Shown here piece by piece: positions 2,165-20,687 of a stretch of 26,250 nucleotides of DNA. Under the pieces are notes generated by a model. That model saw only the letters and a list, made by a program, of their open reading frames with translations, was not told the DNA's origin and ran no database searches. The position numbers and the translations under genes are program-made. This stretch comes from Candidatus Scalindua sp. (GTDB taxonomy: Bacteria > Planctomycetota > Brocadiia > Brocadiales > Scalinduaceae): contig JANLHC010000135.1 in the NCBI GenBank assembly GCA_024654465.1, positions 1 to 26,250 on the forward strand, written 5' to 3'. The stretch's first letter is position 1; every line of letters starts with the position of its first letter.

Positions 2165-2335
2165 TCCAAAGACCTTTTTGATCTTGTTTTATTCTTTTTG
2201 TCTTAAAGCATTCATCACCTGACTATAATGGTGCCAGGATTTTAATTTTATCTTTGGAAGTATGCTTGACGGCGGAAAGGATAAATGGTAAAAGACTTAT
2301 GTTTAATTGATATTATTTGCAAGGAGCATACGACT

Positions 2336-2545
2336 ATGAGTATTGCAGAAAGAATTAATATAACTGTAAAAAGATTGCCGGAATTAAAGCAAATAGAAGT
2401 TCTCGATTTTGTTGAATATCTGCAATCACGAACTGAGAAAGAAGAGTATAAAGAATGGAATGATCTTTCACTTTCGTCTGCAATGCGTGGGATGGAAGAC
2501 GAACATTCCCCTTATTCTACAAATGATCTAAAAGAATGTTTTTAA
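2336..2545 (+). CDS. DUF2281-like antitoxin partner of MazF/PemK
   Basis: MSIAERINITVKRLPELKQIEVLDFVEYLQ... is typical of the short antitoxin found upstream of PemK toxins. An AGGAG lies 8 nt upstream of the ATG at 2336, so the ORF-track start at 2285 is probably an N-terminal over-extension. The stop overlaps the toxin start (TAATG). Confidence 0.7.
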   Translation: MSIAERINITVKRLPELKQIEVLDFVEYLQSRTEKEEYKEWNDLSLSSAMRGMEDEHSPYSTNDLKECF

Positions 2546-2892
2546 TGATTTCTGAAGGCCAAATTGTTCTATTCAAATTTCCTCAAACTGATCAAAAAGA
2601 AGGAAAACGACGACCAGCTCTTATATTACGTGAACTGCCAGGGAAATTTAACGACTGGCTTGTTTGCATGATATCCTCAAAAGTTGACCAACAAATCCTT
2701 GAGCTAGATGAACTTATTACTTCTGATGCTGCTGATTTTCTACAAACTGGATTAAAAGCACCAAGCGTCATTAGAACCAGCAGGCTTGCCGTTGTAGACG
2801 GGAATATACTTCTCGGGAAATTAGGTCAAATTAATACGGAACGGTTAAACAACATCAGACAAAAATTATCGAAATGGATTATTAAAGAATAA
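2545..2892 (+). CDS. mazF: PemK/MazF-family type II toxin (endoribonuclease)
   Basis: Family pattern GQIVLFKFPQTD...GKRRPALIL....DWLVCMISS......DELI.......GLKAPSVIRTSRLAVVD..ILLGKLGQI. The gene is coupled to the upstream antitoxin. Confidence 0.85.
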   Translation: MISEGQIVLFKFPQTDQKEGKRRPALILRELPGKFNDWLVCMISSKVDQQILELDELITSDAADFLQTGLKAPSVIRTSRLAVVDGNILLGKLGQINTERLNNIRQKLSKWIIKE

Positions 2893-5433: not shown

Positions 5434-5572
5434 AAATCTTTCCTTTTAGTAATAAATATCACCAAAATTCTATAATCTACAAATTAACAAATACGGTTAG
5501 TTTAATCTACGGCTTGAAATTGCATTATCCGGAAGCACGTTTTCTAAATATTTACATCGCCCCTTTGAGATA

Positions 5573-6334
5573 CTATTTCTCCTGAGCAATTATTTCTTTA
5601 GTTAACGCCTCGTAATCCTGTGCGCCATTAGAGTCCGGAGCATATGCTGTAATTGGCATACCATGACTTGTTGATTCTGAGAGTTTAATATTTTTTCTAA
5701 TTGTCGTGACAAATACCTTATCTGCAAAATATTCTTTGATCTTGTCAAGCACTGCCTGCCCCAACTTGGTCCTGCTATCGTACATACAAGGTATTATACC
5801 TGTAATCTCTAACTTGCTGTTCAGCCGTTTCTTAATAACATCAAAAGTTTGTATCAGCTTACTTACACCCTGTAAAGCAAAAAACTCAGTCTGCAAAGGA
5901 ATAAAAATTTCGTTAGCAACGGTAAGTGCGTTCAGGGTTAGAAGTCCTAAAGACGGTGGACAGTCAATTAAAACATAATCATACGAGCCTAACATCTCTC
6001 CGATATAGAACTTAACTATCGTTTCACGCCCTACTGTGCTGACAAGCTCTACCTCTGCACTTGCAAGATCAATGTCGGAAGGGATAATATCCAGACCACT
6101 AATGGCTGTTTTTGTTAATACTTCAGAAACAGTCTTTTTACCGCACATAAGCTCATAAATAGATGAATCTTTTCCCTGAACATTAATTCCGAAATGAATG
6201 CTCAAATTGGCTTGAGGATCGAGGTCGATCAGAAGTACCTTTTTACCAAGCGCAGCCAGGCATGCTCCAACATTTGCAGTCGAAGTCGTTTTTCCCACCC
6301 CACCTTTTTGATTTATGAACGCAATACTACGCAT
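5573..6334 (-). CDS. parA: ParA/Soj-family P-loop ATPase
   Basis: Deviant Walker A with the signature lysine (NQKGGVGKTTS). Also LLIDLDPQANLS and VLIDCPPSLG. The 253-aa length is typical of Soj. Confidence 0.9.
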   Translation of the reverse strand: MRSIAFINQKGGVGKTTSTANVGACLAALGKKVLLIDLDPQANLSIHFGINVQGKDSSIYELMCGKKTVSEVLTKTAISGLDIIPSDIDLASAEVELVSTVGRETIVKFYIGEMLGSYDYVLIDCPPSLGLLTLNALTVANEIFIPLQTEFFALQGVSKLIQTFDVIKKRLNSKLEITGIIPCMYDSRTKLGQAVLDKIKEYFADKVFVTTIRKNIKLSESTSHGMPITAYAPDSNGAQDYEALTKEIIAQEK

Positions 6335-6665
6335 TTTGACCTTCTTTGATTTGTATTTTTGTAGTATGTATTAGGCTGATAGTGAAAAGTCTATCCATAC
6401 AAAATATAGTTGTCAAGTATATTTATATAAAAAACTAGTACTAATTATTATAGAAAGTCCTGTGATTTTAGAGACTTATACATTATTGCCAGTCATGTGC
6501 AACCTCATTCCACAGTTCTTTTTGCCTGTACATACATCGAAAAGACACGCATTAGCAACGCTTTGCACTCTGGTTTCAAATACCTTCCGTTTGGAATGCA
6601 TATATATTATTGCTAACGATAATCATCTATACCAGTTTACAACGTAAATTGTCATAAGATTGTTA

Positions 6666-6694
6666 TTGACATATCGATATAAGTTTGTTATTTT
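6666..6694 (+). promoter_or_regulatory. Candidate sigma70-type promoter for the ACP operon, with a palindrome in the spacer
   Basis: TTGACA (6666-6671), a 17-nt spacer, then TATTTT (6689-6694). The perfect 10-bp palindrome ATATCGATAT lies at 6671-6680. Confidence 0.3.
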
Positions 6695-6855
6695 GCCCTT
6701 TTCGATAGTTTTCATTTTATCGTAATCAAGTACCATCAATACTTTTAGACCAATAATTTTTACAGAAAGCAACTTCATAATACCCGATTGATAATTTTTT
6801 GATTGGTGTTTTGTGTATAGTTATATTTCTGGTTGTTTATTAGGGAGGTAAGATA

Positions 6856-7110
6856 TTGCCTGTAGAGAACTTAGAGAAAGATATTACTGCTATTGTAGCG
6901 GAAGTAACCGAGCTGGATGAGAATGAAATATGGGAGAAAAGAGATGCCGATTTTTTTAAGGATTTGGAGATTGATTCCTTATTAGCACTGGAAATTCTTG
7001 CCCTGATAGAAAAGAAATTCAAGGTTCAAATTCCGGAAGAAAAACTCGTAGACATCACATCATTGAATGCAACAATTGAAATGACCAGGTCTACACTTGA
7101 AGGAAAATAG
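6856..7110 (+). CDS. Acyl carrier protein (dedicated, cluster-associated)
   Basis: Phosphopantetheine-attachment motif DLEIDSLLALEIL and the 84-aa size fit an ACP. The TTG start is preceded by GGGAGG 8 nt upstream, with an in-frame TAG at 6841. Confidence 0.85.
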   Translation: MPVENLEKDITAIVAEVTELDENEIWEKRDADFFKDLEIDSLLALEILALIEKKFKVQIPEEKLVDITSLNATIEMTRSTLEGK

Positions 7111-7208
7111 TAAAAAGCTTGTAACGCTTCTTAAACATCTATATGCCTATACACGAACGATAAAAGTGGATATGCAGTGACTATTACATAGAACGAAAGG
7201 TTTTTTTA

Positions 7209-7658
7209 ATGTTGAACTTTGAGGAAGTAAGAGAGCTGGTTCCTCAAAAATACCCTTTCTTATTTATTGATAAAGTTATTGAGCTTCAAAAAGAGAGCAG
7301 GATTGTTTGTCTAAAAAACATCTCTGGTAATGAGCCTTTCTTCGCGGGACACTTCCCTGATTTTGCCATAATGCCTGGAGTTCTCATTGTAGAAGCTCTG
7401 GCGCAAGCCTCGATTATCCTCTTCAAAAAGAGCTTTGACACTGAGCAGTATAAAGATAAAGTCTTTTTGTTGGCTTCCGCAAACGTGCGTTTTTCAAAAC
7501 CTGTTTTTCCTGGCGACCAGCTAACTCTGGAAATTGATATAGAAAAGGTCATTTCCAGTGCGGCAATAGTTAAGGGAGTGGCCAAAGTGGGAGGCAAAGT
7601 TGTAACAAAAGCAACTTTGAGCTTTGGCGTTGCAAACAAAGATTCATTAACCGGATGA
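7209..7658 (+). CDS. fabZ: 3-hydroxyacyl-ACP dehydratase, FabZ type
   Basis: PFLFIDKV..., the hot-dog fold catalytic His in FFAGHFP, PGVLIVEALAQ with the catalytic Glu, and a length of 149 aa. Confidence 0.9.
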   Translation: MLNFEEVRELVPQKYPFLFIDKVIELQKESRIVCLKNISGNEPFFAGHFPDFAIMPGVLIVEALAQASIILFKKSFDTEQYKDKVFLLASANVRFSKPVFPGDQLTLEIDIEKVISSAAIVKGVAKVGGKVVTKATLSFGVANKDSLTG

Positions 7659-7687
7659 AAGTATTAGTATTTGTAAAGTAAACAACC

Positions 7688-8908
7688 ATGGATAAAAGAA
7701 TTGTAATTACCGGCCTGGGTGTAATTTCCCCTATAGGAAACCAAAAAGATCTGTTTTGGGATGCATTAATTTCCGGCACATCCGGTGTGTCTGAGGTCAC
7801 ATCATTTGACACCTCTCCTTTTAAAGTACATAAAGGCTGTTTCGTTAAAGATTTCAATTATGACGATTATACAAAAAATGGTTCTAGTCGAGAGATTGGC
7901 AAAGGTTCTCAATTTGCCATAGCAGCGGCAAAACTTGCTATCGAAGACTCTAATATTGGTTTAAATAATATTGATCCCGAAAGAGCTGGTGTTTCAATTG
8001 GAACAACTGCAGGTGAAATACAGATTCTGGAAAAGGTAAACTATATAAGACATGAAAAGGGAGAAGATAGTGTAGATCCTGGCCTGTTTCTTATGCATCC
8101 TTGCGTTAATATGCCGTCTAACATATCTATTGAATTTGGTTTTAAAGGTCCAAGCACAATAATACCTACTGCCTGTGCCGCCGGTAACTATGCTATCGGT
8201 TATGCATGTGATCTGATAAAATTGGGAAGAGCAGACATAATGCTTGCCGGTGGATCAGATCCGTTTTCTAAAGTTGCTTTTGTTGGTTTTAGTCGATTAA
8301 ATGCCATCGCGCCGGACATTTGCCAACCTTTTGATAAAAACAGAAAAGGCCTGTTAGTTGGAGAAGGTGCAGGGATGCTGGTATTAGAATCCCTGGAAGG
8401 TGCACTAGCCAGAAACGCAAATATCTATGCAGAAATCCTGGGTTACGGCCTGAGCTGTGACGGTTATCACATAACAATTCCGCATCCGGAAGGAAATGGC
8501 GTTACTTCGGCAATGGAAAAGGCCTTGATAAATGCCAAAATCAGACCCGAAGATGTTCAGTATATGAGTGCGCATGGTACAGGAACAGTCGCCAATGACA
8601 AAGCTGAAACTATATCAATAAAGAAGGTCTTTGGTAAACATGCAAAGAATCTGGCCATAAGCTCTATAAAATCAATGCTTGGCCACACAATGGGAGCTGC
8701 CAGCGCTATTGAGGCGATAGCGTGTGCTTTGGCTATTAAAGAGGGCGTTGTACCGCCAACGATAAACTACGAAACAAAAGACCCTGAGTGTGATTTGGAT
8801 TTTGTTCCAAATGTTAAACGTGAAATGCGGGTTGATATTGCCATGAATAATGCATATGCTTTTGGCGGTAACAATAGTAGTCTCATACTGAAAAAGTTTA
8901 CAGATTAA
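7688..8908 (+). CDS. fabF: Beta-ketoacyl-ACP synthase II (KAS II / FabF type), catalytically complete
   Basis: Cys163 lies in [12 protein letters not shown]. The two His residues lie in SAHGTGT and [14 protein letters not shown]. The C-terminal [15 protein letters not shown] is also typical. Confidence 0.92.
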
Positions 8909-9001
8909 AAGTTAAAATAGTGATGCCTTGGTATTCCGACTGAAAATACCGCTAGCATTTCTCAGCTTAAAAAATAATTTCTATAGAGGTAGATAGTATA
9001 T

Positions 9002-10237
9002 ATGAATAATCGCCTGGTTATAACTGGAATAAGTGTCTTATCGTCAATCGGTGTGAACAAGGATGAGTTCTGGATCAATTTGACAAATGGCGCTTCCGGA
9101 ATAAAAGATATCACGCTATTTGATGTCTCTAAATATAACAGCAAAAAAGCGGGTGAGATAACAGATTTTGATGCAAAAGAATACTTAGGGAAAAAAGGTA
9201 TTCGCCACATAGATAGAACATCGTTATTGGTATCCTCTGCGGCAAAACTTGCCATGGAAGATGCTAATATCACTCATGAAACTTATGGTGCCGACGAACT
9301 GGGGATAGTAATCGGGTCAACGTATGGCAGTATTGACAGTATCAGCTCATTCGACTTGGAAGGATTAAAGGAAGGACCAACTTTCGTAAATCCCATGGAA
9401 TTTCCAAATACTGTCCTAAATGCACCGGCAAGCAGGGTATCTATTTTCTGTAATGCGACAGGCTTAAATTCTACAATATCTACAGGTACTGCCAGTGGAT
9501 TGGACGCTATCATTTACGCTTCTGATTTCCTAAGGCTAGGCAGAGGAAAAGCGGTGGTAGCCGGCGGAGTTCATGGTTTAACTCCCGATGTTTTCTGGGG
9601 AGCTTACCGCTCAGGAATATTGTCAGGAAGCCGTAACGGTGATATTGAAATTTCCGCACCATTTGATAAAAGACGTAATGGCTTTATTATTGGCGAAGCT
9701 GCCGCATTACTTGTTATTGAAAGGCTCGAAGACGCATTGGAAAGAAACGCGAAAATCTATGCCGAGATAAAAGGATACGGATGTACGTTTAACCCTGACA
9801 AGGTTTCTCGTGACCACATTGACACCACCCAAGGCGTAAGATGTATCTCTATCGCAATGAAAGATGCCGGGATTAATTCCGAAGATATTTCTTATATCTC
9901 CGCATGCGCAAATTCCAGTATGACCGGCGACATAATGGAAGCTAGAATCATTAAAGACTATTTTGGTGATAACGCTGACAAGGTACCTGTGAGTGCAATA
10001 AAGTCAATGACAGGAGAATGCCTTGATGCATCAGGGTCATTACAGTGTGTTGCCGGTGTATTGGCAATCAATAATGGTATTATCCCTCCGACAATAAACT
10101 ATCAGGAAAAAGATGAAGAGTGTAATCTGGATTGCGTACCTAACAATAGCAGAGAATCAGAGGTAAACAATGTCCTTATCAACTCCTTTTCCGATACAGG
10201 CAACATTTCAGCGGTAATCATATCAAAATATTCATAA
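9002..10237 (+). CDS. KAS-fold paralogue lacking the Cys-His-His triad (KS-beta / chain-length-factor-like)
   Basis: It aligns along its full length to the upstream FabF. The equivalent positions read STGT163ASGLDA (Cys->Thr, codon 9488-9490), SAC302ANSSMTGD (His->Cys) and KSMTGE339CLDASG (His->Glu). Confidence 0.85.
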   Translation: MNNRLVITGISVLSSIGVNKDEFWINLTNGASGIKDITLFDVSKYNSKKAGEITDFDAKEYLGKKGIRHIDRTSLLVSSAAKLAMEDANITHETYGADELGIVIGSTYGSIDSISSFDLEGLKEGPTFVNPMEFPNTVLNAPASRVSIFCNATGLNSTISTGTASGLDAIIYASDFLRLGRGKAVVAGGVHGLTPDVFWGAYRSGILSGSRNGDIEISAPFDKRRNGFIIGEAAALLVIERLEDALERNAKIYAEIKGYGCTFNPDKVSRDHIDTTQGVRCISIAMKDAGINSEDISYISACANSSMTGDIMEARIIKDYFGDNADKVPVSAIKSMTGECLDASGSLQCVAGVLAINNGIIPPTINYQEKDEECNLDCVPNNSRESEVNNVLINSFSDTGNISAVIISKYS

Positions 10238-10256
10238 CTTCAAAGCGACAGTCTTC

Positions 10257-11690
10257 ATGAGTAATTTCTCTCTGAACAAATCTGAACTAAAATCCAAGTA
10301 TGATGTAATTGTACTGGGAGCCGGAATTGCCGGTCTAATCTGCGGGACTTTTCTGGCAAAACATGGAAAGAAAGTACTGATTATTGAACAACATAGTATT
10401 CCCGGAGGTTATTGTACCTCTTTCAAGAGAAAAGGCTTTATTTTTGATGCCGCAGTTCATCATATTGGTGGGTGTGGAAAATGGAGTGTTGTTGGCAGGT
10501 GCCTTAAAGAACTTGACATAAATATTAATTTCCTGCAACTTGACCCCATGGATAGCATACATTTCCCTTCATTTTCCATTGATGTACCTGCCGAGATCGA
10601 CGATTATGTGGATCTGTTAATGAAACGTTTTCCCTCAGAAAGGGAACAACTATCACTTTTTTTTAAGGAGTTTATCAGACTATATCGGGCTACATTCAGC
10701 ACTGAAAGACATGAGATGCTCATCAAATACCAGAACCTTACCTACAAGGAAATGTTGGATAAATTTTTTACAGATGAGCAGCTTAAAATGACACTTTCTG
10801 CACAGTGGGGATACATAGGTTCACCTCCTCACGAAGTTTCGGCTATTGGCATGTGTCAAATGCTGATAAATTATCTGAAAGATGGGGCTTATTTCCCAGT
10901 CGGCGGTACCCAGAATTTCTCAGATACAATCACTCAAAAATTTATTGACTATGGCGGACACATTATGCTATCTTCTAGCGCAGAGAAGGTACTAACAGAG
11001 GATAGTATTATAAAAGGAGTTACAACACAAAAAGGAGAGAAGATCACTGCTGATACTTTTGTTTCAAACATTGATCCCAAACAAACTTTTTTCTGTTTAA
11101 TAGATAAAAATACCGTTGATGACTCATTTCTTAGCAAGATTGAGAATATGAAGGAGAGTGTTTCATTCTTTTTACTATACCTTGGTCTTGATGACAAAAT
11201 AGACTTAAAAGGCCTGAAAAGAGGTTTTTACCATACATCAAAGAACTTAAATTTTTCCGGCAGTGACTGGTTTTATATTTCCGTTCCTACGGAAGTTGAT
11301 TCAAGCCTGGCACCTGATAACAAACAAATAATTTCTGTTGTTGCCTCGTCAAGAGACGATTACGACAACATAGACGATTGGGCCGCGTATAAAAATAAAA
11401 TGAAAGAACATACAATAAATTATCTGAAAAATTATGTACCAGACATTCAGAACCATATTGAAGTAATTGACGCCGCCACACCGAAGACGCTACATCGCTA
11501 CACACTTAACTCAAAAGGCGCGGCTTATGGTTGGGCTGTTACTGTAGACCAGACAGGATCAAATAGACTTCCGCACACAACACCTTTCAAAAATCTTTTT
11601 CTGGCCGGGCACTGGACTAATCCTGGGCCGGGGATATGTGCGGTTGTATCCTCTGGTTGGAGAGTCGCTAATATGATTTTAAATAATTAG
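10257..11690 (+). CDS. FAD-dependent oxidoreductase of the phytoene desaturase (CrtI/CrtD) family
   Basis: N-terminal dinucleotide fold YDVIVLGAGIAGLICGTFLAKHGKKVLIIEQHSIPGGYC. C-terminal LFLAGHWTNPGPGI. The 477-aa length fits the family. Confidence 0.85.
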   Translation: MSNFSLNKSELKSKYDVIVLGAGIAGLICGTFLAKHGKKVLIIEQHSIPGGYCTSFKRKGFIFDAAVHHIGGCGKWSVVGRCLKELDININFLQLDPMDSIHFPSFSIDVPAEIDDYVDLLMKRFPSEREQLSLFFKEFIRLYRATFSTERHEMLIKYQNLTYKEMLDKFFTDEQLKMTLSAQWGYIGSPPHEVSAIGMCQMLINYLKDGAYFPVGGTQNFSDTITQKFIDYGGHIMLSSSAEKVLTEDSIIKGVTTQKGEKITADTFVSNIDPKQTFFCLIDKNTVDDSFLSKIENMKESVSFFLLYLGLDDKIDLKGLKRGFYHTSKNLNFSGSDWFYISVPTEVDSSLAPDNKQIISVVASSRDDYDNIDDWAAYKNKMKEHTINYLKNYVPDIQNHIEVIDAATPKTLHRYTLNSKGAAYGWAVTVDQTGSNRLPHTTPFKNLFLAGHWTNPGPGICAVVSSGWRVANMILNN

Positions 11691-11702
11691 GAGGATTAAG
11701 AA

Positions 11703-13166
11703 ATGAAGAAAATGATGCTTATCAATCCACATCCCCCTGGGCGACATGGCGAGGAGAGCATATCTGTCATAGTTCAAATGCCGTTAAATCTGGCATACAT
11801 CGCGGCCCTTACACCGGGTGACTGGGAGTTCGACGTAATCGATGAAAATTTGGAACTAGCCCTTGATGATAACGGAGAAATTACATTTGAGCCTGTGGAT
11901 TTAGTTTGTATCACTTCTGTTACCTATCAAGTGCCAAGAGCTTACCAAATAGCCGAGATCTGCAGAAAAAAAGGTATGACCGTGATCATGGGTGGTATAC
12001 ACGCTTCGGTAGTGCCAGAGGAAGCCTCAAAATATGTGGATGCTATTTTTATCGGAGAGGCAGAGACTCTCTGGCCACAAGTCATTAAAGATTTTGAAAA
12101 TGGCGAACTCAAAAAAGAGTACAATGGCGGCCTGCCGGGCCTGTCAGAGATGAAGCATGTATTTCCAGATAGGGAACTTCTGAAGAAGAAGTATGATTAC
12201 AAGTTTTCATCTATTGTTACAACAAAAGGTTGTCCGAATTACTGCGATTTCTGCAGCGTACCAACCTTTCAGGGAAAAAAATACCGGGAAAGACCGTATG
12301 AAGACGTCCTGGACGAAATGGAAGCTACGGACTACAAGGGGCTCATGTTTGCCGAAGATAATTTTTATGGCCATAGCAAGAACTCTGCTAACAGGGCAAA
12401 GGCTCTCTTTCGTGGCATGATAGATAGGGGCATTAAAAAGGACTGGCTTGGGTTTACTGCACTCAACATATCAAAGGACGCAGAGGTACTTGATCTTATG
12501 GCAAAGAGTGGAAATTTTGGATTTCTCTGCGGCATAGAATCAACAAATGAAGCAGTTCTGGAGAAGATGAACAAAACGACTAATTTAAGAATTGGTGCCG
12601 ATAATTATTATGACAGCGTTCAAAAAATCCACGATCACGGCCTTGTTGTCTGGGGCTCTATAGTGTTGGGAGCAGATGGTGATGACAAAGATTCATTCAA
12701 AAGAATGACAGAATTTGTGCTGGAAAACAATATTGACGTTCTTACATTTGGCATTAATTGTCCGTTTCCTAAGACAGCGCTTTATGATAGGCTTGATTCT
12801 GAAAAGAGGATTTTTAGAAAGAATTACCCTGAAGACTGGAAATATTATGATACTGCACATGTGGTTCACAGACTTGTGGATATGAACCTTGAGGAGTTCA
12901 TAGACGGCATGCAATATATGTATGATCATCTGTATGCTGGAGACAACCTGAGAATGCGATTCAGGAAATCACTTCAAACTATTGGCAGTACGACTCATGG
13001 TAAACGTAACGCCATGTTTGGATTCAGGGTTGGCTCTGACTGGATACAGGTATTTGAGCAGGTACTGGAAAATCTTCGTCTACTATACGATTCAGGGGAT
13101 TATTACAAAGACTGGTACAAGAGCAGTGCCGTTACTGTTCCTTCCGATAAGGGAGTAACTGTTTAA
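11703..13166 (+). CDS. Cobalamin-binding-domain (class B) radical SAM enzyme
   Basis: Radical SAM motif C177PNYC181DFC184 (12231-12254). It is preceded by an N-terminal Rossmann-like B12-binding-type domain (DLVCITSVT...VIMGGIHAS). AGGAGG lies upstream, 12 nt after the desaturase stop. Confidence 0.85.
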   Translation: MKKMMLINPHPPGRHGEESISVIVQMPLNLAYIAALTPGDWEFDVIDENLELALDDNGEITFEPVDLVCITSVTYQVPRAYQIAEICRKKGMTVIMGGIHASVVPEEASKYVDAIFIGEAETLWPQVIKDFENGELKKEYNGGLPGLSEMKHVFPDRELLKKKYDYKFSSIVTTKGCPNYCDFCSVPTFQGKKYRERPYEDVLDEMEATDYKGLMFAEDNFYGHSKNSANRAKALFRGMIDRGIKKDWLGFTALNISKDAEVLDLMAKSGNFGFLCGIESTNEAVLEKMNKTTNLRIGADNYYDSVQKIHDHGLVVWGSIVLGADGDDKDSFKRMTEFVLENNIDVLTFGINCPFPKTALYDRLDSEKRIFRKNYPEDWKYYDTAHVVHRLVDMNLEEFIDGMQYMYDHLYAGDNLRMRFRKSLQTIGSTTHGKRNAMFGFRVGSDWIQVFEQVLENLRLLYDSGDYYKDWYKSSAVTVPSDKGVTV

Positions 13167-13184
13167 TTCATTTAATTAAAGTTC

Positions 13185-13240
13185 AAAGGCGCAGAAAAAT
13201 ATATCAGGCAAGAACATAATATTTTTCTGTGCCTTTTTGT
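13185..13240 (+). terminator. Rho-independent terminator closing the ACP-to-radical-SAM operon
   Basis: An 18-nt stem with one mismatch (aaaggcGcagaaaaatat / atatttttctgTgccttt) is followed by a T-run (ccttttt). Confidence 0.75.
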
Positions 13241-13466
13241 AGGCTTCAAGAATAAACTCCTTGCTTACATATGGCATGTGTAGCTCAGTATCTAACTCCT
13301 TTGACTCCATCTCCTTTCTTTTATTTTTATTAACCATTGTTCGCTAGAAATCTCCACACATCCCATAATTTTACTTATTTTTTAAAAATTCTACCATTTG
13401 TATACATCGCCACTTTGCCGTTATCGCGATCTTTATTGACAGTGTATTGACAAATAATATTTTTAA

Positions 13467-13494
13467 GGTAAAATTTACTTAGTACTTAAAGTTA
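13467..13494 (+). promoter_or_regulatory. Candidate promoter for the 13557 gene
   Basis: Tandem TATTGACA boxes. The second TTGACA (13467-13472) is followed by a 16-nt spacer and TAAAAT (13489-13494). Confidence 0.25.
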
Positions 13495-13556
13495 TTAGAA
13501 TAGTATTATATATAGGTTGGTACTATAGAAGTATTTAGAAAAAGGAAGGTGGATCA

Positions 13557-14048
13557 ATGTTAAATATTTATAGAAAACTTATCATTTCTATGGTTGCTTT
13601 GTTTGTGTTTGTTGTATTAAGCTTTGCAAATAGCACAATTAATAAGGTACAAGCAGTAGATTATATTAAAAAACCATCAGAAACCCATCATCAGTCATTT
13701 GAACCATATGAAAATCCAATCGTTATTCCTGATCCAAAACCCAGAGGCACTGTAGTAAGAGTTAAAGAGATAACGACATATGATGTCGTTGTTGATGAAG
13801 CAAAGATAGCAGCAAATAACGTTACCATGGCTGATCTCGAACTTATAGAGGTGAAGGACAAGAAGGATATCAATTTCCACCAGGTAGACTGTTATTTCTA
13901 TGCAAAGGTAAAACAGACTCAGACAAAATCAACAAACTATGGAGCAAGCACACGATGGAGAGAAGGAGAGCAATTCTGGCTATCAGACGGTGGGAAATAT
14001 GTTGAGTGGGAGCCATGGTCAGAATGGTATTCAGGTAATAAGTGGTAA
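13557..14048 (+). CDS. Secreted hypothetical protein with a Trp-rich C-terminus
   Basis: RBS GGAAGGTGG. Signal-peptide-like N-terminus (LIISMVALFVFVVLSFANS). C-terminus WREGEQFWLSDGGKYVEWEPWSEWYSGNKW. No family recognised. Confidence 0.6.
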   Translation: MLNIYRKLIISMVALFVFVVLSFANSTINKVQAVDYIKKPSETHHQSFEPYENPIVIPDPKPRGTVVRVKEITTYDVVVDEAKIAANNVTMADLELIEVKDKKDINFHQVDCYFYAKVKQTQTKSTNYGASTRWREGEQFWLSDGGKYVEWEPWSEWYSGNKW

Positions 14049-14317
14049 TGTGTATCGTTGGGAGATTTATGTTCTGATAATACCAAATAGGAGAATCCAA
14101 TTTGCGGTTTCAGAAGGAGTATGTTGGGCTACCACCTGTCCTAAGCAAAATATCAGGGCAGATACAATCATTAAAGTAGAAGCACACATTCAAAAAACCG
14201 TTAAGTGGCACATATAGACCGATCTCTGAATGCTACACTCTTTCATTTTCTGAATAGATGTTAAAGCGATTAGACGTCCTGATGATTTTCAACTTCTTTT
14301 CGTTTTGTTTTAAACAA

Positions 14318-14950
14318 TTAGAAAGATTCGTCTTTTTTTGCAAGCAGACTGATCTTTATGTCTGTATACATTAGAGACATCACCCTATTCATCCCCCTAT
14401 GTGACATCAAGTTAAACTCTTCGAGTTTAACTTCCAAATCTCCATTTAGCCACACCATCTTCTTATGTATTTCGTCTTCTTCTGTTAAATCCGGTTCGCC
14501 ATTTCCCTCTATAAAAATTGTCTCGGTCTTCTTTATATCATCTTCAGCAAATTGTAAAGTATAGTCCTTCCAACTATTGAGAACGACAATTTTATAAAGT
14601 TTATCTTCATAAAAAAAGAATGTGAAGCGGCCGCCGGAAACGTTTCTGGAAAGCGTGGTAACCTTATTGTTTACCATCGGATCATATTCAAATTTGTCTG
14701 GAGCAGGAAATTGTTTCTGTACCTCACTTACGCTTACTCCAAACTCAAGCGGTTGTACCATTGTTTTTGTATCGGGGGTGTATTCGTCCTCAGGTGCGTT
14801 ACCTAGCATTGCTCTAAGAGCCTGAGCCTCTTTATAGAGTTCTTCATCTGCGATTACCTTTTTATCCGTAGCAACCTTCTCAGTTGTAGTACAGTTTTGT
14901 ATAATTACCAATGTAGAAATTAACAACAATACCAGCCGGATATTTTTCAT
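14318..14950 (-). CDS. Hypothetical exported protein, possible lipoprotein
   Basis: N-terminus MKNIRLVLLLISTLVIIQNC, with a hydrophobic signal followed by Cys; the lipobox is non-canonical. No family recognised. Confidence 0.55.
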   Translation of the reverse strand: MKNIRLVLLLISTLVIIQNCTTTEKVATDKKVIADEELYKEAQALRAMLGNAPEDEYTPDTKTMVQPLEFGVSVSEVQKQFPAPDKFEYDPMVNNKVTTLSRNVSGGRFTFFFYEDKLYKIVVLNSWKDYTLQFAEDDIKKTETIFIEGNGEPDLTEEDEIHKKMVWLNGDLEVKLEEFNLMSHRGMNRVMSLMYTDIKISLLAKKDESF

Positions 14951-15009: not shown

Positions 15010-16002
15010 TCAAGGCACTTCTATATTATCAAAGATGTTTTGTATGACTTTTTCTGCGGTCATTTCTTCTGCTTCTGCTTCATAGGTTATGATAACTCTA
15101 TGTCGCAGCACATCCATTCCTATAGACTTTACATCTTGTGGAGTGACATAACCCCTGCCTTTGAGAAAAGCATATGCCTTTGACGCAATCGCCAGGTAAA
15201 TTGTTGCCCTGGGCGAAGCACCATATTCAATGAATTCACCTAAATTAAGGCCGTATTTCTGAGGATCTCTGGTGGCAATTACCAAGTCCACTATGTAGTC
15301 CTTTATCTTATCATCAATGTAAATCTGGTCGACTACCGCACGTAGGCGCTTAATGTCATCTGGTTTTAATACAGAATCCACTTTTATGTTGGTATCTGTC
15401 AATGCCATTCTGTCTAAAATCTCACGTTCTTCGCTTTTACTGGGATAATCAACATTAAGCTTTAACATGAATCTGTCAACCTGTGCTTCAGGCAAAGGAT
15501 AAGTACCTTCCTGCTCAATTGGGTTTTGTGTAGCAAGTACCAGGAAAGGATCTTCGAGTTTAAATGTCTCACTGCCTATCGTTACCTGCTTCTCCTGCAT
15601 AGCCTCTAAAAGCGCGCTCTGAACCTTTGCAGGTGCCCTGTTAATTTCATCAGCAAGTATAATATTTGAGAATATCGGTCCTTTTTTTGTAGTAAACTCA
15701 CCAGAACGAGGATTGTAGATAAGGGTACCTATCAGGTCTGCCGGCAGGAGATCAGGTGTAAATTGAAGCCTTTGGTACTTCACCTGAATTGCTTTTGCCA
15801 GTGTCATAACAGATAGGGTCTTTGCTAATCCGGGAACACCTTCCAGGAGGATATGGCCATTCGCCAGAATACCAATCAGCAATCTTTCTATAAGATGTTT
15901 TTGTCCTACAATTACTTTCCCCATCTCATTGCTTAGGTTAGAAAGAACACCGCTCTCTTCTTTAATAATATCCGTTATATTTTTAATGTCTTTTGATTCC
16001 AT
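15010..16002 (-). CDS. MoxR-family AAA+ ATPase (AAA_3)
   Basis: GHILLEGVPGLAKT (Walker A), ILADEINRAPAKVQSALLEAMQEKQVT (Walker B/sensor) and ATQNPIEQEGTYPLPEAQVDRF. Confidence 0.92.
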   Translation of the reverse strand: MESKDIKNITDIIKEESGVLSNLSNEMGKVIVGQKHLIERLLIGILANGHILLEGVPGLAKTLSVMTLAKAIQVKYQRLQFTPDLLPADLIGTLIYNPRSGEFTTKKGPIFSNIILADEINRAPAKVQSALLEAMQEKQVTIGSETFKLEDPFLVLATQNPIEQEGTYPLPEAQVDRFMLKLNVDYPSKSEEREILDRMALTDTNIKVDSVLKPDDIKRLRAVVDQIYIDDKIKDYIVDLVIATRDPQKYGLNLGEFIEYGASPRATIYLAIASKAYAFLKGRGYVTPQDVKSIGMDVLRHRVIITYEAEAEEMTAEKVIQNIFDNIEVP

Positions 16003-16070
16003 ATTAGTCTACACTTGTTTGATGGTTATCGGAAGTAAAAGTCAAAGTTAGATAGTCTTATGAACTTTTG

Positions 16071-18374
16071 TTATTGAATTTCTCTTACTACGCATGCTTC
16101 TATCAGATCTTCAATCTTATCTTTATTCATCAGGTAGACAAAGTTTGTCTCTGAACCGGTAACATAATAATCATTACCGGCTTCTTTGCCAACCAGCAAT
16201 GAGACCTCACCATCGTCAAAACTAATGGTAATATTGAACTGTGGGTTATCTAATCCATATTTTGATAAATCCTTGTTTGAATACTGTACAATAGACTCAC
16301 CCATCAGTAACTTCATTGAAGAAATGATTCGATCTGCTAAATTCCCACTCAATAGCATGATTTCCGGTTTGATCATTTGCCACACATGTTCTTCATTTTT
16401 CTGAAAAAGCAGCTCATTTTCAGGATGTATTATTTTAATAGACTTCGCATTTGTGGAATCGAAGCTAAACAGTGTCCTTGTGACAAGCTCAATACTGTAA
16501 TCCCTGACGTCAGTCCACCCTACCTGAAAAACCATATCCTGACCATCCACCTTAGCATAGTAGTTAGATTTATCCTTTTCCGGTTCAACTTTATTTCCTA
16601 TCAGGAGCGTTTTTGTTTTCAATTCCTTTGGCTTTACCAAGTCACTCTTCTCACTAATTACTTCATCGCTGTGCGCAGCCATTCCAGATGCTTCGTATGT
16701 TACAGATGCTTTTAACAGAGGCTTGTCAAGCCCATAATCAGCAAGATTTTCTGCTGAAAGAGTCACTATCTTATCAGCCAACAAAAATGATAGATTCCAT
16801 ACCACTTGATTGATGGAGTCCAATTCTGCTTCCATTGTTACAGGACTTACCATATTCCACTTCGGCCTGCGCATAGTAGAATCTTCCGTCGTCTCACATA
16901 TGAGTGTTTTACCATCACGCTCTATGACTATTTTTTGAGCTGTTTCCTTGGGAAATTCCATGACTAATTTATCTCTGAATGCGAGATAACCAGCCTTAGC
17001 AATTTCATAAAAATTTTCCGTTGGAACGGTATATACAGCATCTTCTCCGTCTCGCCTTACATAGCACAGTCCACCATTTTCGTCTGCATTACCTATCAAA
17101 AATTTCACCGTTTCACCTTCGCCGATTCTTCTGAATACTGAAACTTCGATAGGTGAGTCTGCTAATCCGTACTTCTCAAAGTTATCACCACTATCGTCAA
17201 CATACTGCTGTATCTGCAAATCCTTAATTTTTTCCACGAATTCTCTTACCGTATCTCTATCAGCCAGAATTTCTTTTGGCGATTTAATCATCCAGTCATA
17301 TTGCGCTGTCTTTTCCATAACAAGGTGTGCATCAGAAGATTTCAAATCAATTTTTTCTATCCCGTAAGTACCTATTGCATCAAACCTCAATAGCTGTTTG
17401 TCCCGCAAATCGTTCAGTTCCAAATCTAGATCGCGAAGAATAATATCGTGTACTAGAAAAATAGAACTTTCGCCGTCAAGCTTTGCGTAGATCTTTTCAT
17501 CCAGACGGTGACCCAAACGGAGAGTTTGCACATTGTCTGTAGTACCTATACTGATAGTAAATACGGGCTTATCCAGACCGTAGTTGATAATATCTTCTTT
17601 GCTATCAGACACAAAATCCTCTTTTGCAATCTTCAGGTTTTTTAATTCATTGAGAATATCCTGGATTCTTTCAGTATCAGCACGGTCTGAAAGTGGTTGT
17701 GTTATCCACCAGAGTTGCTCCGCCTTAGAACACACCACAGGCTCATTCTCGCCGCTCTCAAGTCTCAATCTTTCTACAGAATGTTTATCATACTCAAATG
17801 CCCATTTATTTCTTAAATCATTGATTTCTTTGTTTACTTTCTCCAGAAATTTAGCGTCAACGACAGAAACATTCTTGTCGTCCCCCACAGTTATATATAC
17901 AGTGTCTTGTCCGGCTGCCAGCCTATCCCCGATACTAACGGTATACTTGGTAACATCTCCGGCAGTTCCACCAACCATTGAACCCTTTTTAAGCCAGAGG
18001 CTAACAACAAGATCTGGGGTTTCAAGGCCATATTCTTTCAAGCTGAAGTTTGCTGTTTCACTTTCTTTAACAACACCGATTTTTCTCAGAAACTCAAATT
18101 GTGCGAGAATTTCTGCCACCTCAGCTTTGTCAGCTCTCAGTTGCAGAGGCTCCACCATCCTCCAGTTCTCATTATCGGTACTTTCAAGGACGATATTAGT
18201 ATCCCCCTTTTTCATTTCAATTTTATTAATCTGGCCTGGTTTGTAATCCGGCAATACCATTTGCTGCCTCTGTACCCATACATCTGTCCTGTATTGTCTT
18301 TTGTCATACAGAAATATGTATGCCGCACCAATGCCTGCAATTATTAAAAGTATTATAGTCGTTCTAAATTTCAT
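16071..18374 (-). CDS. DUF4340-type protein with five tandem domain repeats and an N-terminal membrane anchor
   Basis: The likely start is MKFRTTIILLIIAGIGAAYIF (ATG at 18374, which avoids overlap with the upstream gene). The motif pair W.(M/I)..P...AD......(I/V) followed by YGL(D/E).P occurs five times, with YGL at residues 135/285/422/567/726 of the 787-aa track ORF. Position after a GldG-like gene is typical for DUF4340. Confidence 0.75.
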   Translation of the reverse strand: MKFRTTIILLIIAGIGAAYIFLYDKRQYRTDVWVQRQQMVLPDYKPGQINKIEMKKGDTNIVLESTDNENWRMVEPLQLRADKAEVAEILAQFEFLRKIGVVKESETANFSLKEYGLETPDLVVSLWLKKGSMVGGTAGDVTKYTVSIGDRLAAGQDTVYITVGDDKNVSVVDAKFLEKVNKEINDLRNKWAFEYDKHSVERLRLESGENEPVVCSKAEQLWWITQPLSDRADTERIQDILNELKNLKIAKEDFVSDSKEDIINYGLDKPVFTISIGTTDNVQTLRLGHRLDEKIYAKLDGESSIFLVHDIILRDLDLELNDLRDKQLLRFDAIGTYGIEKIDLKSSDAHLVMEKTAQYDWMIKSPKEILADRDTVREFVEKIKDLQIQQYVDDSGDNFEKYGLADSPIEVSVFRRIGEGETVKFLIGNADENGGLCYVRRDGEDAVYTVPTENFYEIAKAGYLAFRDKLVMEFPKETAQKIVIERDGKTLICETTEDSTMRRPKWNMVSPVTMEAELDSINQVVWNLSFLLADKIVTLSAENLADYGLDKPLLKASVTYEASGMAAHSDEVISEKSDLVKPKELKTKTLLIGNKVEPEKDKSNYYAKVDGQDMVFQVGWTDVRDYSIELVTRTLFSFDSTNAKSIKIIHPENELLFQKNEEHVWQMIKPEIMLLSGNLADRIISSMKLLMGESIVQYSNKDLSKYGLDNPQFNITISFDDGEVSLLVGKEAGNDYYVTGSETNFVYLMNKDKIEDLIEACVVREIQ

Positions 18375-18399
18375 AGTTATATAAAGTCTCCGTTTATTA

Positions 18400-19986
18400 T
18401 TATCTTCTTCTTCTCCACCAGACGTAGCCGCCAATTATTATTCCGATAGAAGGTAGCCCTGCAATAGACAGCCAGAATATTGCAGCTAGTTGTCCAGGCC
18501 TGACAATCGCCCTCCTGACGTCAGGAGCTTTAGCAGATATCCCTAACTCCTTTTCCCTCCGAGCCAGCCAGCTTATAGCATTTAAGACAAGGTCCTGATT
18601 TCCCGGGTTATCAGAAAATGCGTTTGCGGCAAAATCTGTATCACCGAAGACAACAACACGCGGCCCCTTTTTACCAATATCGGCAAAAGCCTGTGTAGCA
18701 TGTGGAGGTGCAGTAGGGTTTGGTTTCGCTTCTCTCAGCTCTGATACCGCTGCTAAGATAATTGGAGAACTAATATCTGAGTCTTCATCATATTTCGGTC
18801 TTTTTTTACCAACTATCTCAGTTTCACCCCAACTTTGGTCGGGAGCTTGTACAATCCCTGTAGCAACGAATGCCATTGTGTCGCTCAAAGGGGCAATGCT
18901 AAGTACGCTTGAACCATAAAAAACTGATGTCAGTTTTTTGATGTCTGCTGTTATCTCATGGTCTAAGTATTTCTTATCACTTATATAAACCTCAACAACC
19001 GTCTGCATACCAAAAAGCGGCATATTCACTTTGTTGTATACAACGGCATCATCCCTGACAACTATACCGTATTCTCCAAGCAATGCACTTAAACCAGGTG
19101 ATTTATTGACGCCTACGGCAGGTTCAAGCATTACGAGTAACTTGCCGTTTTTAAGTTCACCTTTATCGTTTATCAGTCTTGCCGAAGTTCCAACATAGTC
19201 TCGAATATAGTTTGTTTCTTGTGTTGAGAAACTTTTTGTTGGACCGGCAATGAAGAGTATGTCGCAATTTTCAGGAACTCGCTTCTGTTGTAATAAATCA
19301 AGTGGCAGAACGTTGTAATTAGCACGTTTGATAGCGCTTGCCAATTTTCCTAAGCCCGCACGTTCAAAATCCTCGTAATCTCTCTCTCCATGTCCTTTGG
19401 TAAAGTAAACGTTTGTCTGTTTTTCCCGTGTTACATTTAAAACTGCTGACGTAAAGATCTCTTCGCCCTTGAATTTGAAAGGAAATTCTCTTTCGATTAC
19501 CTCTGATTGTTGTACATGTTTACTTTTATCTCCACAAGTGAAGATTATAGAATTGATTTGCAATTGCTCCAGATCCATCTTGAGCTTCTCTGCCAGCTCA
19601 GTTATTTTAGTACGATCGGTCAACGGGTTCAGGAGAGTAACCGTTATCTTGTCTGATAGATACTTATATTCTTCAAGTATATCTATGACCTGCCCGTAAA
19701 AACGGTAATCCTGTTTTTTTACCAGAAGTGAGGTAATAAAAACAGGTTGATCAAGATTTTTCAGAATTTTCTTTGTTTTAGCACTTAGTGAGTATTTTCC
19801 AGACGCAGTAAAGTCACAACGGTAGTAATGTCTATCGTTAATATAGCTGACAAAGACAAAGATCGCGATAGCGATAAGTATCATAAAAATCACATTAGCC
19901 CCGATCAGGGTTTTTTGTTTTTTTATATTTTGTGGATTCTCTGGTGTTATTACTTCTTTATTATTCAATGACTTTCCTACCTCCAT
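18400..19986 (-). CDS. GldG-like auxiliary component of an ABC-2 transport system
   Basis: N- and C-terminal TM anchors flank a large periplasmic domain, ending ...GGYVWWRRRR. The gene overlaps the upstream permease gene by 10 nt. The order ATPase-permease-GldG is conserved. Confidence 0.75.
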   Translation of the reverse strand: MEVGKSLNNKEVITPENPQNIKKQKTLIGANVIFMILIAIAIFVFVSYINDRHYYRCDFTASGKYSLSAKTKKILKNLDQPVFITSLLVKKQDYRFYGQVIDILEEYKYLSDKITVTLLNPLTDRTKITELAEKLKMDLEQLQINSIIFTCGDKSKHVQQSEVIEREFPFKFKGEEIFTSAVLNVTREKQTNVYFTKGHGERDYEDFERAGLGKLASAIKRANYNVLPLDLLQQKRVPENCDILFIAGPTKSFSTQETNYIRDYVGTSARLINDKGELKNGKLLVMLEPAVGVNKSPGLSALLGEYGIVVRDDAVVYNKVNMPLFGMQTVVEVYISDKKYLDHEITADIKKLTSVFYGSSVLSIAPLSDTMAFVATGIVQAPDQSWGETEIVGKKRPKYDEDSDISSPIILAAVSELREAKPNPTAPPHATQAFADIGKKGPRVVVFGDTDFAANAFSDNPGNQDLVLNAISWLARREKELGISAKAPDVRRAIVRPGQLAAIFWLSIAGLPSIGIIIGGYVWWRRRR

Positions 19987-20687
19987 TTTCTACTCTCAAC
20001 ATTTCGTACTGTTATAAACAAAAGTAATGCCGTAAAACTCAGATAGTAAATTACATCCCTGGTATCCACAATGCCTTTTGTAAAAGATGACCAATGGTCA
20101 TAAGTCCCAATATACCGTAGTGATTCGTAAAACCAACCATCACCGTACGTACTTAGAAAACCAACTACCCATAGAATTATTAATGCAACTATTCCGATCA
20201 CGGCAGCAACAACTTGATTCTTAGTTAACGATGACACAAGCAAACCGATAGATACAAATAGTCCACCCATAAGTATTAGTCCAATATAACTGGAAAAAAT
20301 TGGCCCGAAGTCCGGATTCCCGAAAATACTCAGAAATAATACATATATCCATGTCGGAAGGATCATTACAGTATACAGGCTTAAGGCGGCAAGAAATTTA
20401 CCAAATACTACATCAAAATCTGTTACCGGAGAAGTCATGAGTGTTTCCATCGTCCCGGACTTTGACTCATCTGCAAAAAGCTTCATGGTGATCACGGGCG
20501 TAAGCAACAGAAGGAAAAATTGAATTGAGTCCAGGCTTCCCTTAAGGGAAGCTTCCTGCCAGAACTGCAGATTGCCTGCAAAAAAGAAACCGGATGCAAT
20601 AAGGAATACAGAAATCACAACGTATGCAATTGGTGAATAAAAGTAGGACAAGATTTCTCGTTGAAATATAGTAGTTACGTTACGCAC
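19977..20687 (-). CDS. ABC-2 family permease (GldF-like)
   Basis: 236 aa with about 6 hydrophobic helices. It overlaps the ATPase gene by 8 nt. Confidence 0.8.
   Translation of the reverse strand: MRNVTTIFQREILSYFYSPIAYVVISVFLIASGFFFAGNLQFWQEASLKGSLDSIQFFLLLLTPVITMKLFADESKSGTMETLMTSPVTDFDVVFGKFLAALSLYTVMILPTWIYVLFLSIFGNPDFGPIFSSYIGLILMGGLFVSIGLLVSSLTKNQVVAAVIGIVALIILWVVGFLSTYGDGWFYESLRYIGTYDHWSSFTKGIVDTRDVIYYLSFTALLLFITVRNVESRKWR

Follow-up and report, generated by a model that had tools for sequence, protein, structure and literature searches.

A FabF-fold ketosynthase without a catalytic triad in a Candidatus Scalindua gene cluster: a very probable orthologue of the non-catalytic subunit amxFabFmut

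What does a ketosynthase do when none of its three catalytic residues is left? This question is raised by a 26,250-nucleotide stretch of Candidatus Scalindua DNA (contig JANLHC010000135.1, assembly GCA_024654465.1; hereafter the window), in which two FabF-like ketosynthase (KS) genes stand side by side, one encoding the protein called KS1 throughout (7688-8908) and the other, the subject of this study, the protein called KS2 (9002-10237). Scalindua is a marine anammox genus, and the genes around this pair are leading candidates for making the ladderane lipids, a long-standing biosynthetic puzzle. Our analysis indicates that KS2 is very probably orthologous to amxFabFmut, the FabF-fold subunit of the Cluster I ketosynthase that has no catalytic role, and is paired with KS1. 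Such a dead KS makes the condensing enzyme of the cluster a heterodimer resembling a ketosynthase and its chain-length factor (CLF). The feature as such is already known, the deviant triad having been described in 2009 and structures and assays of the heterodimer in a preprint of 2026, and KS2 is a further Scalindua example. Added here are a residue-by-residue picture of conservation, which argues against a relocated cysteine nucleophile, evidence of purifying selection on the KS2 gene, and copies of the gene module on high-GC contigs that are unlikely to be of anammox origin, which bear on the ladderane specificity of the cluster.

To establish what the catalytic positions hold, KS2 was aligned with its neighbor. 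The 411-residue KS2 aligned end to end with the 406-residue KS1 (BLASTP, 37% identity over 412 columns, E = 3e-86), as a preliminary description of this locus had reported. In the pairwise alignment, read together with the indexed translations, Thr163 (STGTASG), Cys302 (SACANSS) and Glu339 (MTGECLD) of KS2 stand opposite Cys163, His296 and His333 of KS1. The triad assignment does not depend on any single pairwise alignment, because the FabF of Bacillus subtilis with known structure (4LS6), aligned by HMMER, gives the same result: its 'TACATG' Cys, 'AHGTST' His and 'TGHLLG' His face the same three KS2 residues. The replacement of Cys/His/His by Thr/Cys/Glu was thereby confirmed, and mis-assigned residues or a hidden triad, which the preliminary description had named as one way in which its claim could fail, were not found. 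The deviant triad of KS2 is real and not an alignment artefact. The KSM(T/L)G box was kept, as described, with Lys334 in place, and Asp310 and Glu313 are retained as well; we take these three residues to be the counterparts of Lys335, Asp311 and Glu314 of E. coli FabF. The gating Phe is absent, KS2 reading 'SDTG' where the FabF type has 'GFGG'. The KS2 protein is identical in sequence to MCR4289183.1 and MCR4344031.1 of Candidatus Scalindua sp., and KS1 to MCR4289182.1 of a Candidatus Scalindua sp. metagenome-assembled genome (MAG) (NCBI).

The fold itself is intact by all measures that we applied. Both ketosynthase domains were recognized by Pfam (ketoacyl-synt, 9e-38; Ketoacyl-synt_C, 2e-24), and an AlphaFold2 model built from a 66-sequence alignment reached a mean predicted local distance difference test score (pLDDT) of 94.9 and a predicted template modeling (TM) score of 0.94. 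In a Foldseek search this model superimposed on the FabF structures 4LS5, 1E5M and 2GQD with TM scores of 0.94-0.96, B. subtilis 4LS5, about 40% identical to KS2, ranking first; the structure library ran up to April 2026 and did not contain 9S5H, so this search could confirm the FabF fold only.

The pair of genes has been noticed before in other anammox bacteria. Rattray et al. (2009; PMC2649909) tabulated Kuste3606 as Val163/Asn298/Lys328/Glu333 and concluded from the deviant active site that its substrate and function are unlike those of a normal FabF, and Javidpour et al. (2016; PMC4790861) listed the protein as a 'non-canonical FabF'. The names amxFabF2 and amxFabFmut were coined in May 2026 by Granatino et al. 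(bioRxiv 10.64898/2026.05.19.726425); the orthologues are KustE3606, Broful02170 and Scabro02228, and the heterodimer is called amxFabFhet. According to this preprint, the catalytic Cys of amxFabFmut is replaced by Val in most anammox species and by Thr in Scalindua brodae, and the two His by Asn, Glu or Cys. The subunits of Brocadia fulgida and Kuenenia stuttgartiensis co-purified when co-expressed, and both were needed for the decarboxylation of malonyl-amxACP (amxACP being the acyl carrier protein, ACP, of the cluster) and for the formation of acetoacetyl-amxACP, neither being active alone. Crystal structures were obtained of the heterodimer alone and with C8-amxACP. The B. fulgida heterodimer has a single productive tunnel, which runs through the active site of amxFabF2 and is lined in part by Phe135, Thr138 and Val139 of amxFabFmut, and amxACP touches both subunits. 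The substitutions V139G and F135G/V139G in the dead subunit altered the preference among C6, C8 and C16 probes, and alpha-bromoacyl-amxACP did not crosslink to either subunit alone but gave an adduct on amxFabF2 in the heterodimer. The authors read these results as a heterodimer of the ketosynthase/chain-length-factor kind, rejected a separate catalytic role for amxFabFmut, and claimed the first chain-length factor in a fatty-acid-type pathway (Granatino et al., 2026). The suggestion of the preliminary description that KS2 resembles inactive paralogues that heterodimerize with the active KS and control chain length or priming has thus been shown to hold for the orthologues of B. fulgida and of K. 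stuttgartiensis.

Among PDB sequences KS2 matched best the chain 9S5H_C (chain C of 9S5H/9S5I) with 585 bits and E = 5.5e-175, against 286 bits for the second-best match, B. subtilis FabF; the crystal structure of S. brodae amxFabFmut was not found in this search. The segment MEFPNTVLN of KS2 aligned to MDFPNTVLN of 9S5H_C, hence Phe134, Thr137 and Val138 were matched to the tunnel residues, our numbering presumably lying one residue below the Phe135/Thr138/Val139 of the preprint. These three residues are probable contributors to the lining of the acyl pocket of the partner.

From these observations a mechanism can be proposed, in which residues, orthology, synteny, conservation and selection are read from the sequence, and heterodimer, pair activity, tunnel and ACP contacts are taken from the orthologue experiments, on the premise that the Scalindua pair would behave like the tested orthologues. 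KS2 itself would neither condense nor decarboxylate, and would pair with KS1, which has the sole Cys/His/His site. The helix-loop-helix of KS2 with Phe134, Thr137 and Val138 would close and line the acyl tunnel of KS1, and KS2 would also supply part of the docking surface for the ACP encoded in the cluster (6856-7110). The pair would decarboxylate malonyl-amxACP and form acetoacetyl-amxACP as a priming step; since KS2 lacks both His, the decarboxylation would take place in the KS1 site. It would further prefer short acyl chains of about C6-C8, KS2 acting in the manner of a chain-length factor. No new catalytic set would be present in KS2: position 163 would be free to vary, position 302 would be kept small or polar (Cys in Scalindua) and Glu339 would be fixed, probably stabilizing the filled-in pocket. 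The product of the pair would presumably feed the synthesis of ladderane lipids.

Several observations weigh against this scheme. When kuste3603-3608 were expressed in E. coli, new lipids did not appear (Javidpour et al., 2016, PMC4790861), and the link to ladderanes is therefore circumstantial. The Scalindua data of the preprint consist of a crystal of the S. brodae amxFabFmut homodimer, expressed alone and with a disordered helix-loop-helix, and the tested orthologues carry Val/Asn/Glu, unlike the Thr/Cys/Glu of KS2. There was no elongation past acetoacetyl-ACP in vitro, and the evidence on chain length comes from a non-physiological crosslinking reaction (Granatino et al., 2026). The negative/positive surface asymmetry that the preprint derives from surface-potential calculations was not reproduced by our linear charge count over the helix-loop-helix (110-140) and the partner helix (196-206), which gave -3/+2 for KS1 and -4/0 for KS2, a count that is crude in comparison with a surface-potential calculation and a weak test of the asymmetry.

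To see which residues of the former active site are held constant, we compared KS2 with 115 full-length homologues of at least 65% identity (97 Scalindua-type and 18 Brocadia/Kuenenia-type, the Brocadia-type orthologues being 65-67% identical). Cys/His/His was absent from every one of them, and a state that is fixed in 115 of 115 relatives is not the product of chance or of a sequencing error. Position 163 is Thr in 59 sequences, all of which fall in the closest Scalindua group, while 46 others have Val, 7 have Glu and 3 have Ile; it is free to change, because a Scalindua locus only 13% divergent from KS2 (L009, 87% identical) already has Val, encoded by GTG in place of ACT. Every one of the 97 Scalindua-type sequences, the most distant being about 66% identical, has Cys at position 302, where all 18 of the Brocadia/Kuenenia type have Asn, and position 339 is Glu throughout, with an invariant Cys340 behind it. 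A wider alignment of 66 sequences reaching down to 35% identity comprised 14 anammox-type and 52 distant ones, the latter chosen for Glu at position 339, so that the invariance of Glu339 among them is selected for. Across this alignment Lys334, Asp310 and Gly338 are invariant and Glu313 nearly so. The distant relatives mostly have Ser, Ala, Asn or Gly at position 302 (45 of 52) and rarely Gln at position 163 (3 of 52). The motif F134-P-N-T137-V138 has its three tunnel residues invariant in the 14 anammox-type sequences, and so is Cys340, which recurs as a 'GEC' motif in 26 of the 52 distant relatives; this cysteine, on which the preliminary description is silent, does not figure in the discussion in the parts of the preprint consulted.

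These patterns bear directly on the idea that Cys302 or Cys340 is a relocated nucleophile, that is, an acyl-accepting or otherwise reactive thiol that would give KS2 of the Scalindua lineage a catalytic or covalent-intermediate role in a tunnel of its own. The constancy of Cys302 among Scalindua-type orthologues and of Cys340 among all anammox-type ones speaks for it, as do a second tunnel, running to the mutated triad of amxFabFmut and occupied in the crystal by a polyethylene glycol molecule (Granatino et al., 2026), and the fact that the proteins assayed so far are others than the Cys302-bearing ones. However, the orthologues whose heterodimers are functional have Asn at position 302, and the distant relatives have other small residues there; B. 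fulgida amxFabFmut does possess Cys340 and yet gave no adduct with alpha-bromoacyl-amxACP on its own, the adduct of the heterodimer being on amxFabF2 (Granatino et al., 2026); and KS2 lacks both decarboxylation His and the gating Phe. As position 163 drifts and position 302 alternates between Cys and Asn across orthologues, we regard a relocated nucleophile as very unlikely. Of the two readings that the preliminary description had offered for Cys302, a relocated nucleophile or simple drift, the comparison favors drift or lineage variation. On the alignments, the most plausible view of Cys302 is that position 302 tolerates several small residues, of which Cys became fixed in one lineage. A minor possibility is that Cys302 of Scalindua and Cys340 serve in redox chemistry or acyl binding within the second tunnel.

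The glutamate at the second His position behaves differently. Judged by the alignments, Glu339 beside the retained Lys334 is a real signature of the dead KS, and its role may be a structural one, for example that of a Glu-Lys pair filling the former active site. Among the best 150 representatives (P0121-P0270) retrieved from a library of 1.84 billion proteins, 86 were single-domain proteins (<1000 residues) with all three positions aligned; 68 of these lacked Cys/His/His, and 58 of the 68 had Glu at the second His position. Some 38 fused proteins of about 800 residues were also observed, with an active KS as the first half and a dead KS as the second; in 15 of the dead halves the second His position is Glu.

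Since all three catalytic residues are lost and a paralogue adjoins, KS2 could in principle be the decaying, non-functional remnant of a tandem duplication of KS1. The ratio of non-synonymous to synonymous substitutions (dN/dS) speaks otherwise: in pairwise comparisons of the window with eight Scalindua-type loci, over dS values of up to more than 1, it was 0.04-0.11 for KS2, as against 0.04-0.12 for KS1, 0.08-0.14 for the neighboring CrtI-like gene and 0.03-0.05 for the radical S-adenosylmethionine (rSAM) gene. Because of this low ratio and the invariant tunnel motif, KS2 is seen as kept by selection and not as a decaying copy. The frame is intact, the predicted fold is well defined, the gene is kept in at least 115 orthologues, and the orthologue is needed for the activity of the pair (Granatino et al., 2026). 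KS1 and KS2 lie in one reading frame, separated by 93 nucleotides with several stop codons. KS2 scores higher against B. subtilis FabF (286 bits) than against 9S5H_B, the chain of amxFabF2 (246 bits), and the pair is therefore not a recent tandem duplication. The probability of decay is practically nil, and a pseudogene is refuted by the selection analysis together with the orthologue biochemistry.

Strong purifying selection would equally be expected of an independent enzyme, and it has to be asked whether KS2 acts as a homodimer in another reaction, such as the coupling of a short acyl chain to a ladderane unit made beforehand, an idea first put forward by Rattray et al. (2009; PMC2649909), who had argued for a different substrate or function from the deviant active site. 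The homodimer in which S. brodae amxFabFmut crystallized is in line with such a role. In that crystal, however, the dimerization and tunnel motif is disordered, order and activity being found only in the heterodimer; the separately expressed orthologues were without any activity, and the preprint authors regard the early proposal as refuted (Granatino et al., 2026). Moreover, the conserved polar residues of the KS2 pocket amount to Lys334, Asp310, Glu313 and Glu339, with position 163 varying between Thr, Val, Ile and Glu. An independent enzyme is accordingly most improbable in our estimate, and a non-catalytic subunit paired with KS1 remains the preferred reading of KS2.

The surroundings of the pair agree with this reading. 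Six co-directional and closely spaced genes on the forward strand (6856-13166) encode the ACP, a FabZ-type dehydratase, KS1, KS2, a CrtI-like flavoenzyme and a B12-binding rSAM enzyme (Table 1), in the gene order of kuste3603-3608 of Kuenenia stuttgartiensis, 'Cluster I', the foremost candidate for the biosynthesis of ladderane lipids in anammox bacteria (PMC4790861; Granatino et al., 2026). The same order is common to 17 Scalindua-type loci, being complete wherever the contig is long enough, and the closest loci among genomes either bear the name Scalindua or come from Scalindua-like MAGs. Like KS2, the other three proteins of the fatty-acid type matched solved anammox structures in the PDB: the ACP best 7QV0_D (E = 2.5e-46) and also 9S5I_E (8e-36), FabZ 8AYI (1e-87) and 7QV0_A (4e-86), and KS1 9S5H_B (3.4e-204). 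The window FabZ has Ile69, and Ile at this position is the signature of amxFabZ (PMC10139942). KS1 passes the NCBIfam model PRK07314 (449 bits, cut-off 387), and the flavoenzyme, syntenic in the Scalindua loci, stays below the cut-off of crtI_fam (160.6 bits against 238). The ACP is 95-100% identical in 15 Scalindua-type loci (L001-L013, L015; an end fragment in L008, 100%) and 87% identical in L014, and the rSAM enzyme 94-99% in close Scalindua loci, 92% in L010 and 87% in L014. The preprint places amxFabFmut 'just upstream' of amxFabF2; in the window, and by the numbering of kuste3605/3606, the dead KS lies downstream. A consensus scan of 6300-13600 found 29 promoter-like sites, against 21.7 ± 3.9 in shuffled sequence, and 5 terminator-like sites, against 5.0, and did not delimit the operon.

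Table 1. Positions of the cluster genes and key codons in the window, and of related modules on other contigs (coordinates of the respective locus)
Feature	Position	Strand	Basis or context
amxACP-type acyl carrier protein, 84 residues, TTG start, Ser41 in DSL motif	6856-7110	+	Pfam PP-binding 5e-14
amxFabZ-type 3-hydroxyacyl-ACP dehydratase, 149 residues	7209-7658	+	Pfam FabA 2e-27
KS1, amxFabF2-type active ketosynthase, 406 residues	7688-8908	+	Cys163/His296/His333, 9S5H_B match
Cys163 codon of KS1	8174-8176	+
His296 codon of KS1	8573-8575	+
His333 codon of KS1	8684-8686	+
KS2, very probable amxFabFmut, dead FabF-fold partner, 411 residues	9002-10237	+	ATG-started open reading frame, 9S5H_C match
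Phe134-Pro-Asn-Thr137-Val138 codons of KS2, helix-loop-helix motif	9401-9415	+	alignment with 9S5H_C
Thr163 codon of KS2 (STGTASG), ACT, former nucleophile Cys position	9488-9490	+	translation indexing
Cys302 codon of KS2 (SACANSS), TGC, former first His position	9905-9907	+	translation indexing
Lys334...Gly338-Glu339-Cys340 codons of KS2 (KSMTGEC)	10001-10021	+	Glu339 = former second His position
Glu339 codon of KS2 (MTGECLD), GAA	10016-10018	+
Cys340 codon of KS2	10019-10021	+
CrtI/phytoene-desaturase-family FAD oxidoreductase, 'PDH-like', kuste3607 position	10257-11690	+	Pfam Amino_oxidase 3e-22
B12-binding radical SAM enzyme, kuste3608 position	11703-13166	+	Pfam B12-binding and Radical_SAM
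Six-gene module, L047 (same in L048)	5476-11476		60% G+C, NCBI soil MAG contig, Acidobacteria by the name of its rSAM, flanking glycoside hydrolases
Module core, two extra rSAM paralogues and further KS/dead-KS pairs, L045	8024-17181		69% G+C, 381-kb contig
Module core, two extra rSAM paralogues and further KS/dead-KS pairs, L044	644-10082		57% G+C metagenomic contig
Partial module, L049	7676-11431		72% G+C; KS pair and rSAM, without CrtI-like gene

Cluster I is described as unique to ladderane producers in the preprint (Granatino et al., 2026). At 38-50% identity, the nearest relatives of KS2 that are not orthologues occur in clusters of the same build, on contigs that are unlikely to come from anammox bacteria. 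The window has a G+C content of about 31-44% per 1-kb interval; the module copies on high-GC contigs encode proteins 38-60% identical to those of the window. In the soil contig L047 the order is ACP, FabA-like dehydratase, KS (Cys/His/His), dead KS (Ala/Phe/Asp), CrtI-like flavoenzyme, B12 rSAM enzyme, short-chain dehydrogenase/reductase (SDR) and FabH, the first six being 60, 49, 56, 38, 42 and 57% identical to their window counterparts, and the rSAM enzyme carries the name 'Acidobacteria bacterium 13_1_40CM_2_60_7'. For the contigs L044 and L045, the names of rSAM homologues hint at hosts among the Acidobacteria, Myxococcota and Planctomycetota. Looser arrangements were also seen. L042 (7911-14563, GCA_964586075.1, 51% GC) has a methyltransferase, an SDR, a dead KS, an ApeP/FabA-like dehydratase, an active KS, an ACP and a CrtI-like flavoenzyme, the dead KS being Phe/Cys/Glu and 46% identical to KS2, with no radical-SAM gene adjacent. 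In L046 (10001-13944), from a Candidatus Omnitrophota MAG (GCA_046542295.1), the dead-KS relative is 43% identical to KS2 and neighbors an SDR, an ApeP/FabA-like dehydratase and an HI0933-like flavoprotein, with no Cys/His/His KS within 10 kb, and it may be an orphan.

The gene contents of these contigs suggest that the six-gene module is distributed more widely than the ladderane producers. A broader proposal, which we put forward tentatively and consider possible but doubtful, is that KS2 is one member of a far more extensive 'x-x-Glu' family, derived from FabF, whose proteins are non-catalytic KS partners and differ from the chain-length factors of polyketide synthases (PKS), and that the six-gene module is not confined to anammox bacteria. 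If this were true, the invariant Glu-for-His exchange would be a functional signature of the family, and either Cluster I alone would not specify ladderanes or related strained or cyclized lipids would be made outside the anammox bacteria. The system itself is still important, and the homologous clusters outside the anammox bacteria may merit separate attention.

Elsewhere in the window, overlapping genes at 2285-2892 (+) encode a DUF2281 protein (86 residues) followed by a PemK/MazF-like toxin (118 residues), which probably form a type II toxin-antitoxin module. A row of genes at 15010-21633 (-), encoding a MoxR-type AAA ATPase, a DUF4340 protein (787 residues), an ABC-transporter auxiliary protein, an ABC-2 permease and an ABC ATPase, looks ordinary and unconnected with the lipid cluster. 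The MoxR gene and two small hypothetical genes (13557-14950) are syntenic with the cluster in L002, L005, L010 and L015. Rfam and tRNA scans found no RNA genes in the window.

Compared with known systems, KS2 is most like amxFabFmut, with which it shares the position in the cluster, the loss of the triad with Glu at the second His position, and the FPNTV motif. Where amxFabFmut is defined by Val or Thr, Asn or Cys, and Glu in place of Cys/His/His, KS2 has Thr163, Cys302 and Glu339; the Thr is that of S. brodae (Granatino et al., 2026), whereas the Brocadia and Kuenenia proteins have Val and Asn at the first two positions. With FabF/KAS II it has the fold, the length and the end-to-end alignment in common. 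That enzyme, however, is an active homodimer with Cys/His/His and the gating Phe, and KS2 lacks both features and would act in a heterodimer; it scores below the NCBIfam cut-offs for FabF (TIGR03150, 350.7 against 493.75; PRK07314, 339.5 against 387).

An active and a dead KS side by side, served by an ACP and a dehydratase of their own, also recall type II PKS systems, in which KS1 and KS2 would be the KS-alpha and KS-beta of an aromatic or polyene polyketide pathway. The ishigamide pair Iga11/Iga12 (6KXD-6KXF) and the ApeO/ApeC pairs are likewise KS/dead-KS heterodimers that have their own ACP and a dehydratase of the FabA/ApeI-like kind. According to the preprint, the ishigamide KS Iga11 (6KXE) is the closest structure to amxFabF2 (Granatino et al., 2026). 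In our searches Iga11 was among the PDB matches of KS1 (340.7 bits), and Iga12 was not among the 60 best PDB matches listed for KS2 or for the dead-KS family profile. AmcF and AmcG of cispentacin biosynthesis form a KS-like heterodimer of a type II system resembling fatty acid synthases (FAS). Weak NCBIfam scores to AmcF (KS1 232 and KS2 138 bits, cut-off 325) and of the window FabZ to AmcE (93 bits, cut-off 140) all lie below threshold and are leads only, not membership.

The actinorhodin CLF (1TQY_B) is similar in that it is an inactive thiolase-fold paralogue adjoining an active KS, forms an obligate heterodimer and shapes the tunnel, and in that pairs of this type can decarboxylate malonyl-ACP for priming, with the active KS and an ACP encoded nearby. 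It differs in having Gln at the nucleophile position, where KS2 has Thr and its orthologues Thr, Val, Ile or Glu; the preliminary description was correct on this point, which fits a place of KS2 outside the actinorhodin-type family. The context of the actinorhodin CLF is one of cyclases and aromatases, whereas that of KS2 is FAS-like, with FabZ, the CrtI-like flavoenzyme and the B12 rSAM enzyme, and domain searches found no cyclase, aromatase or ketoreductase gene in the window operon. The dead-KS family profile gave 434 bits to B. subtilis FabF and 397 to E. coli FabF, against 276 to 1TQY_B, on which ground membership of KS2 among the classical CLFs (KS-beta) was rejected; a type II PKS pathway for the pair is extremely improbable. 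The inactivation of KS2 was probably independent of that of KS-beta. KS2 is like a chain-length factor in its proposed action, yet judged by these profile scores it stands outside the KS-beta family, in amxFabFmut and with it possibly within a broader group of FabF-derived dead partners.

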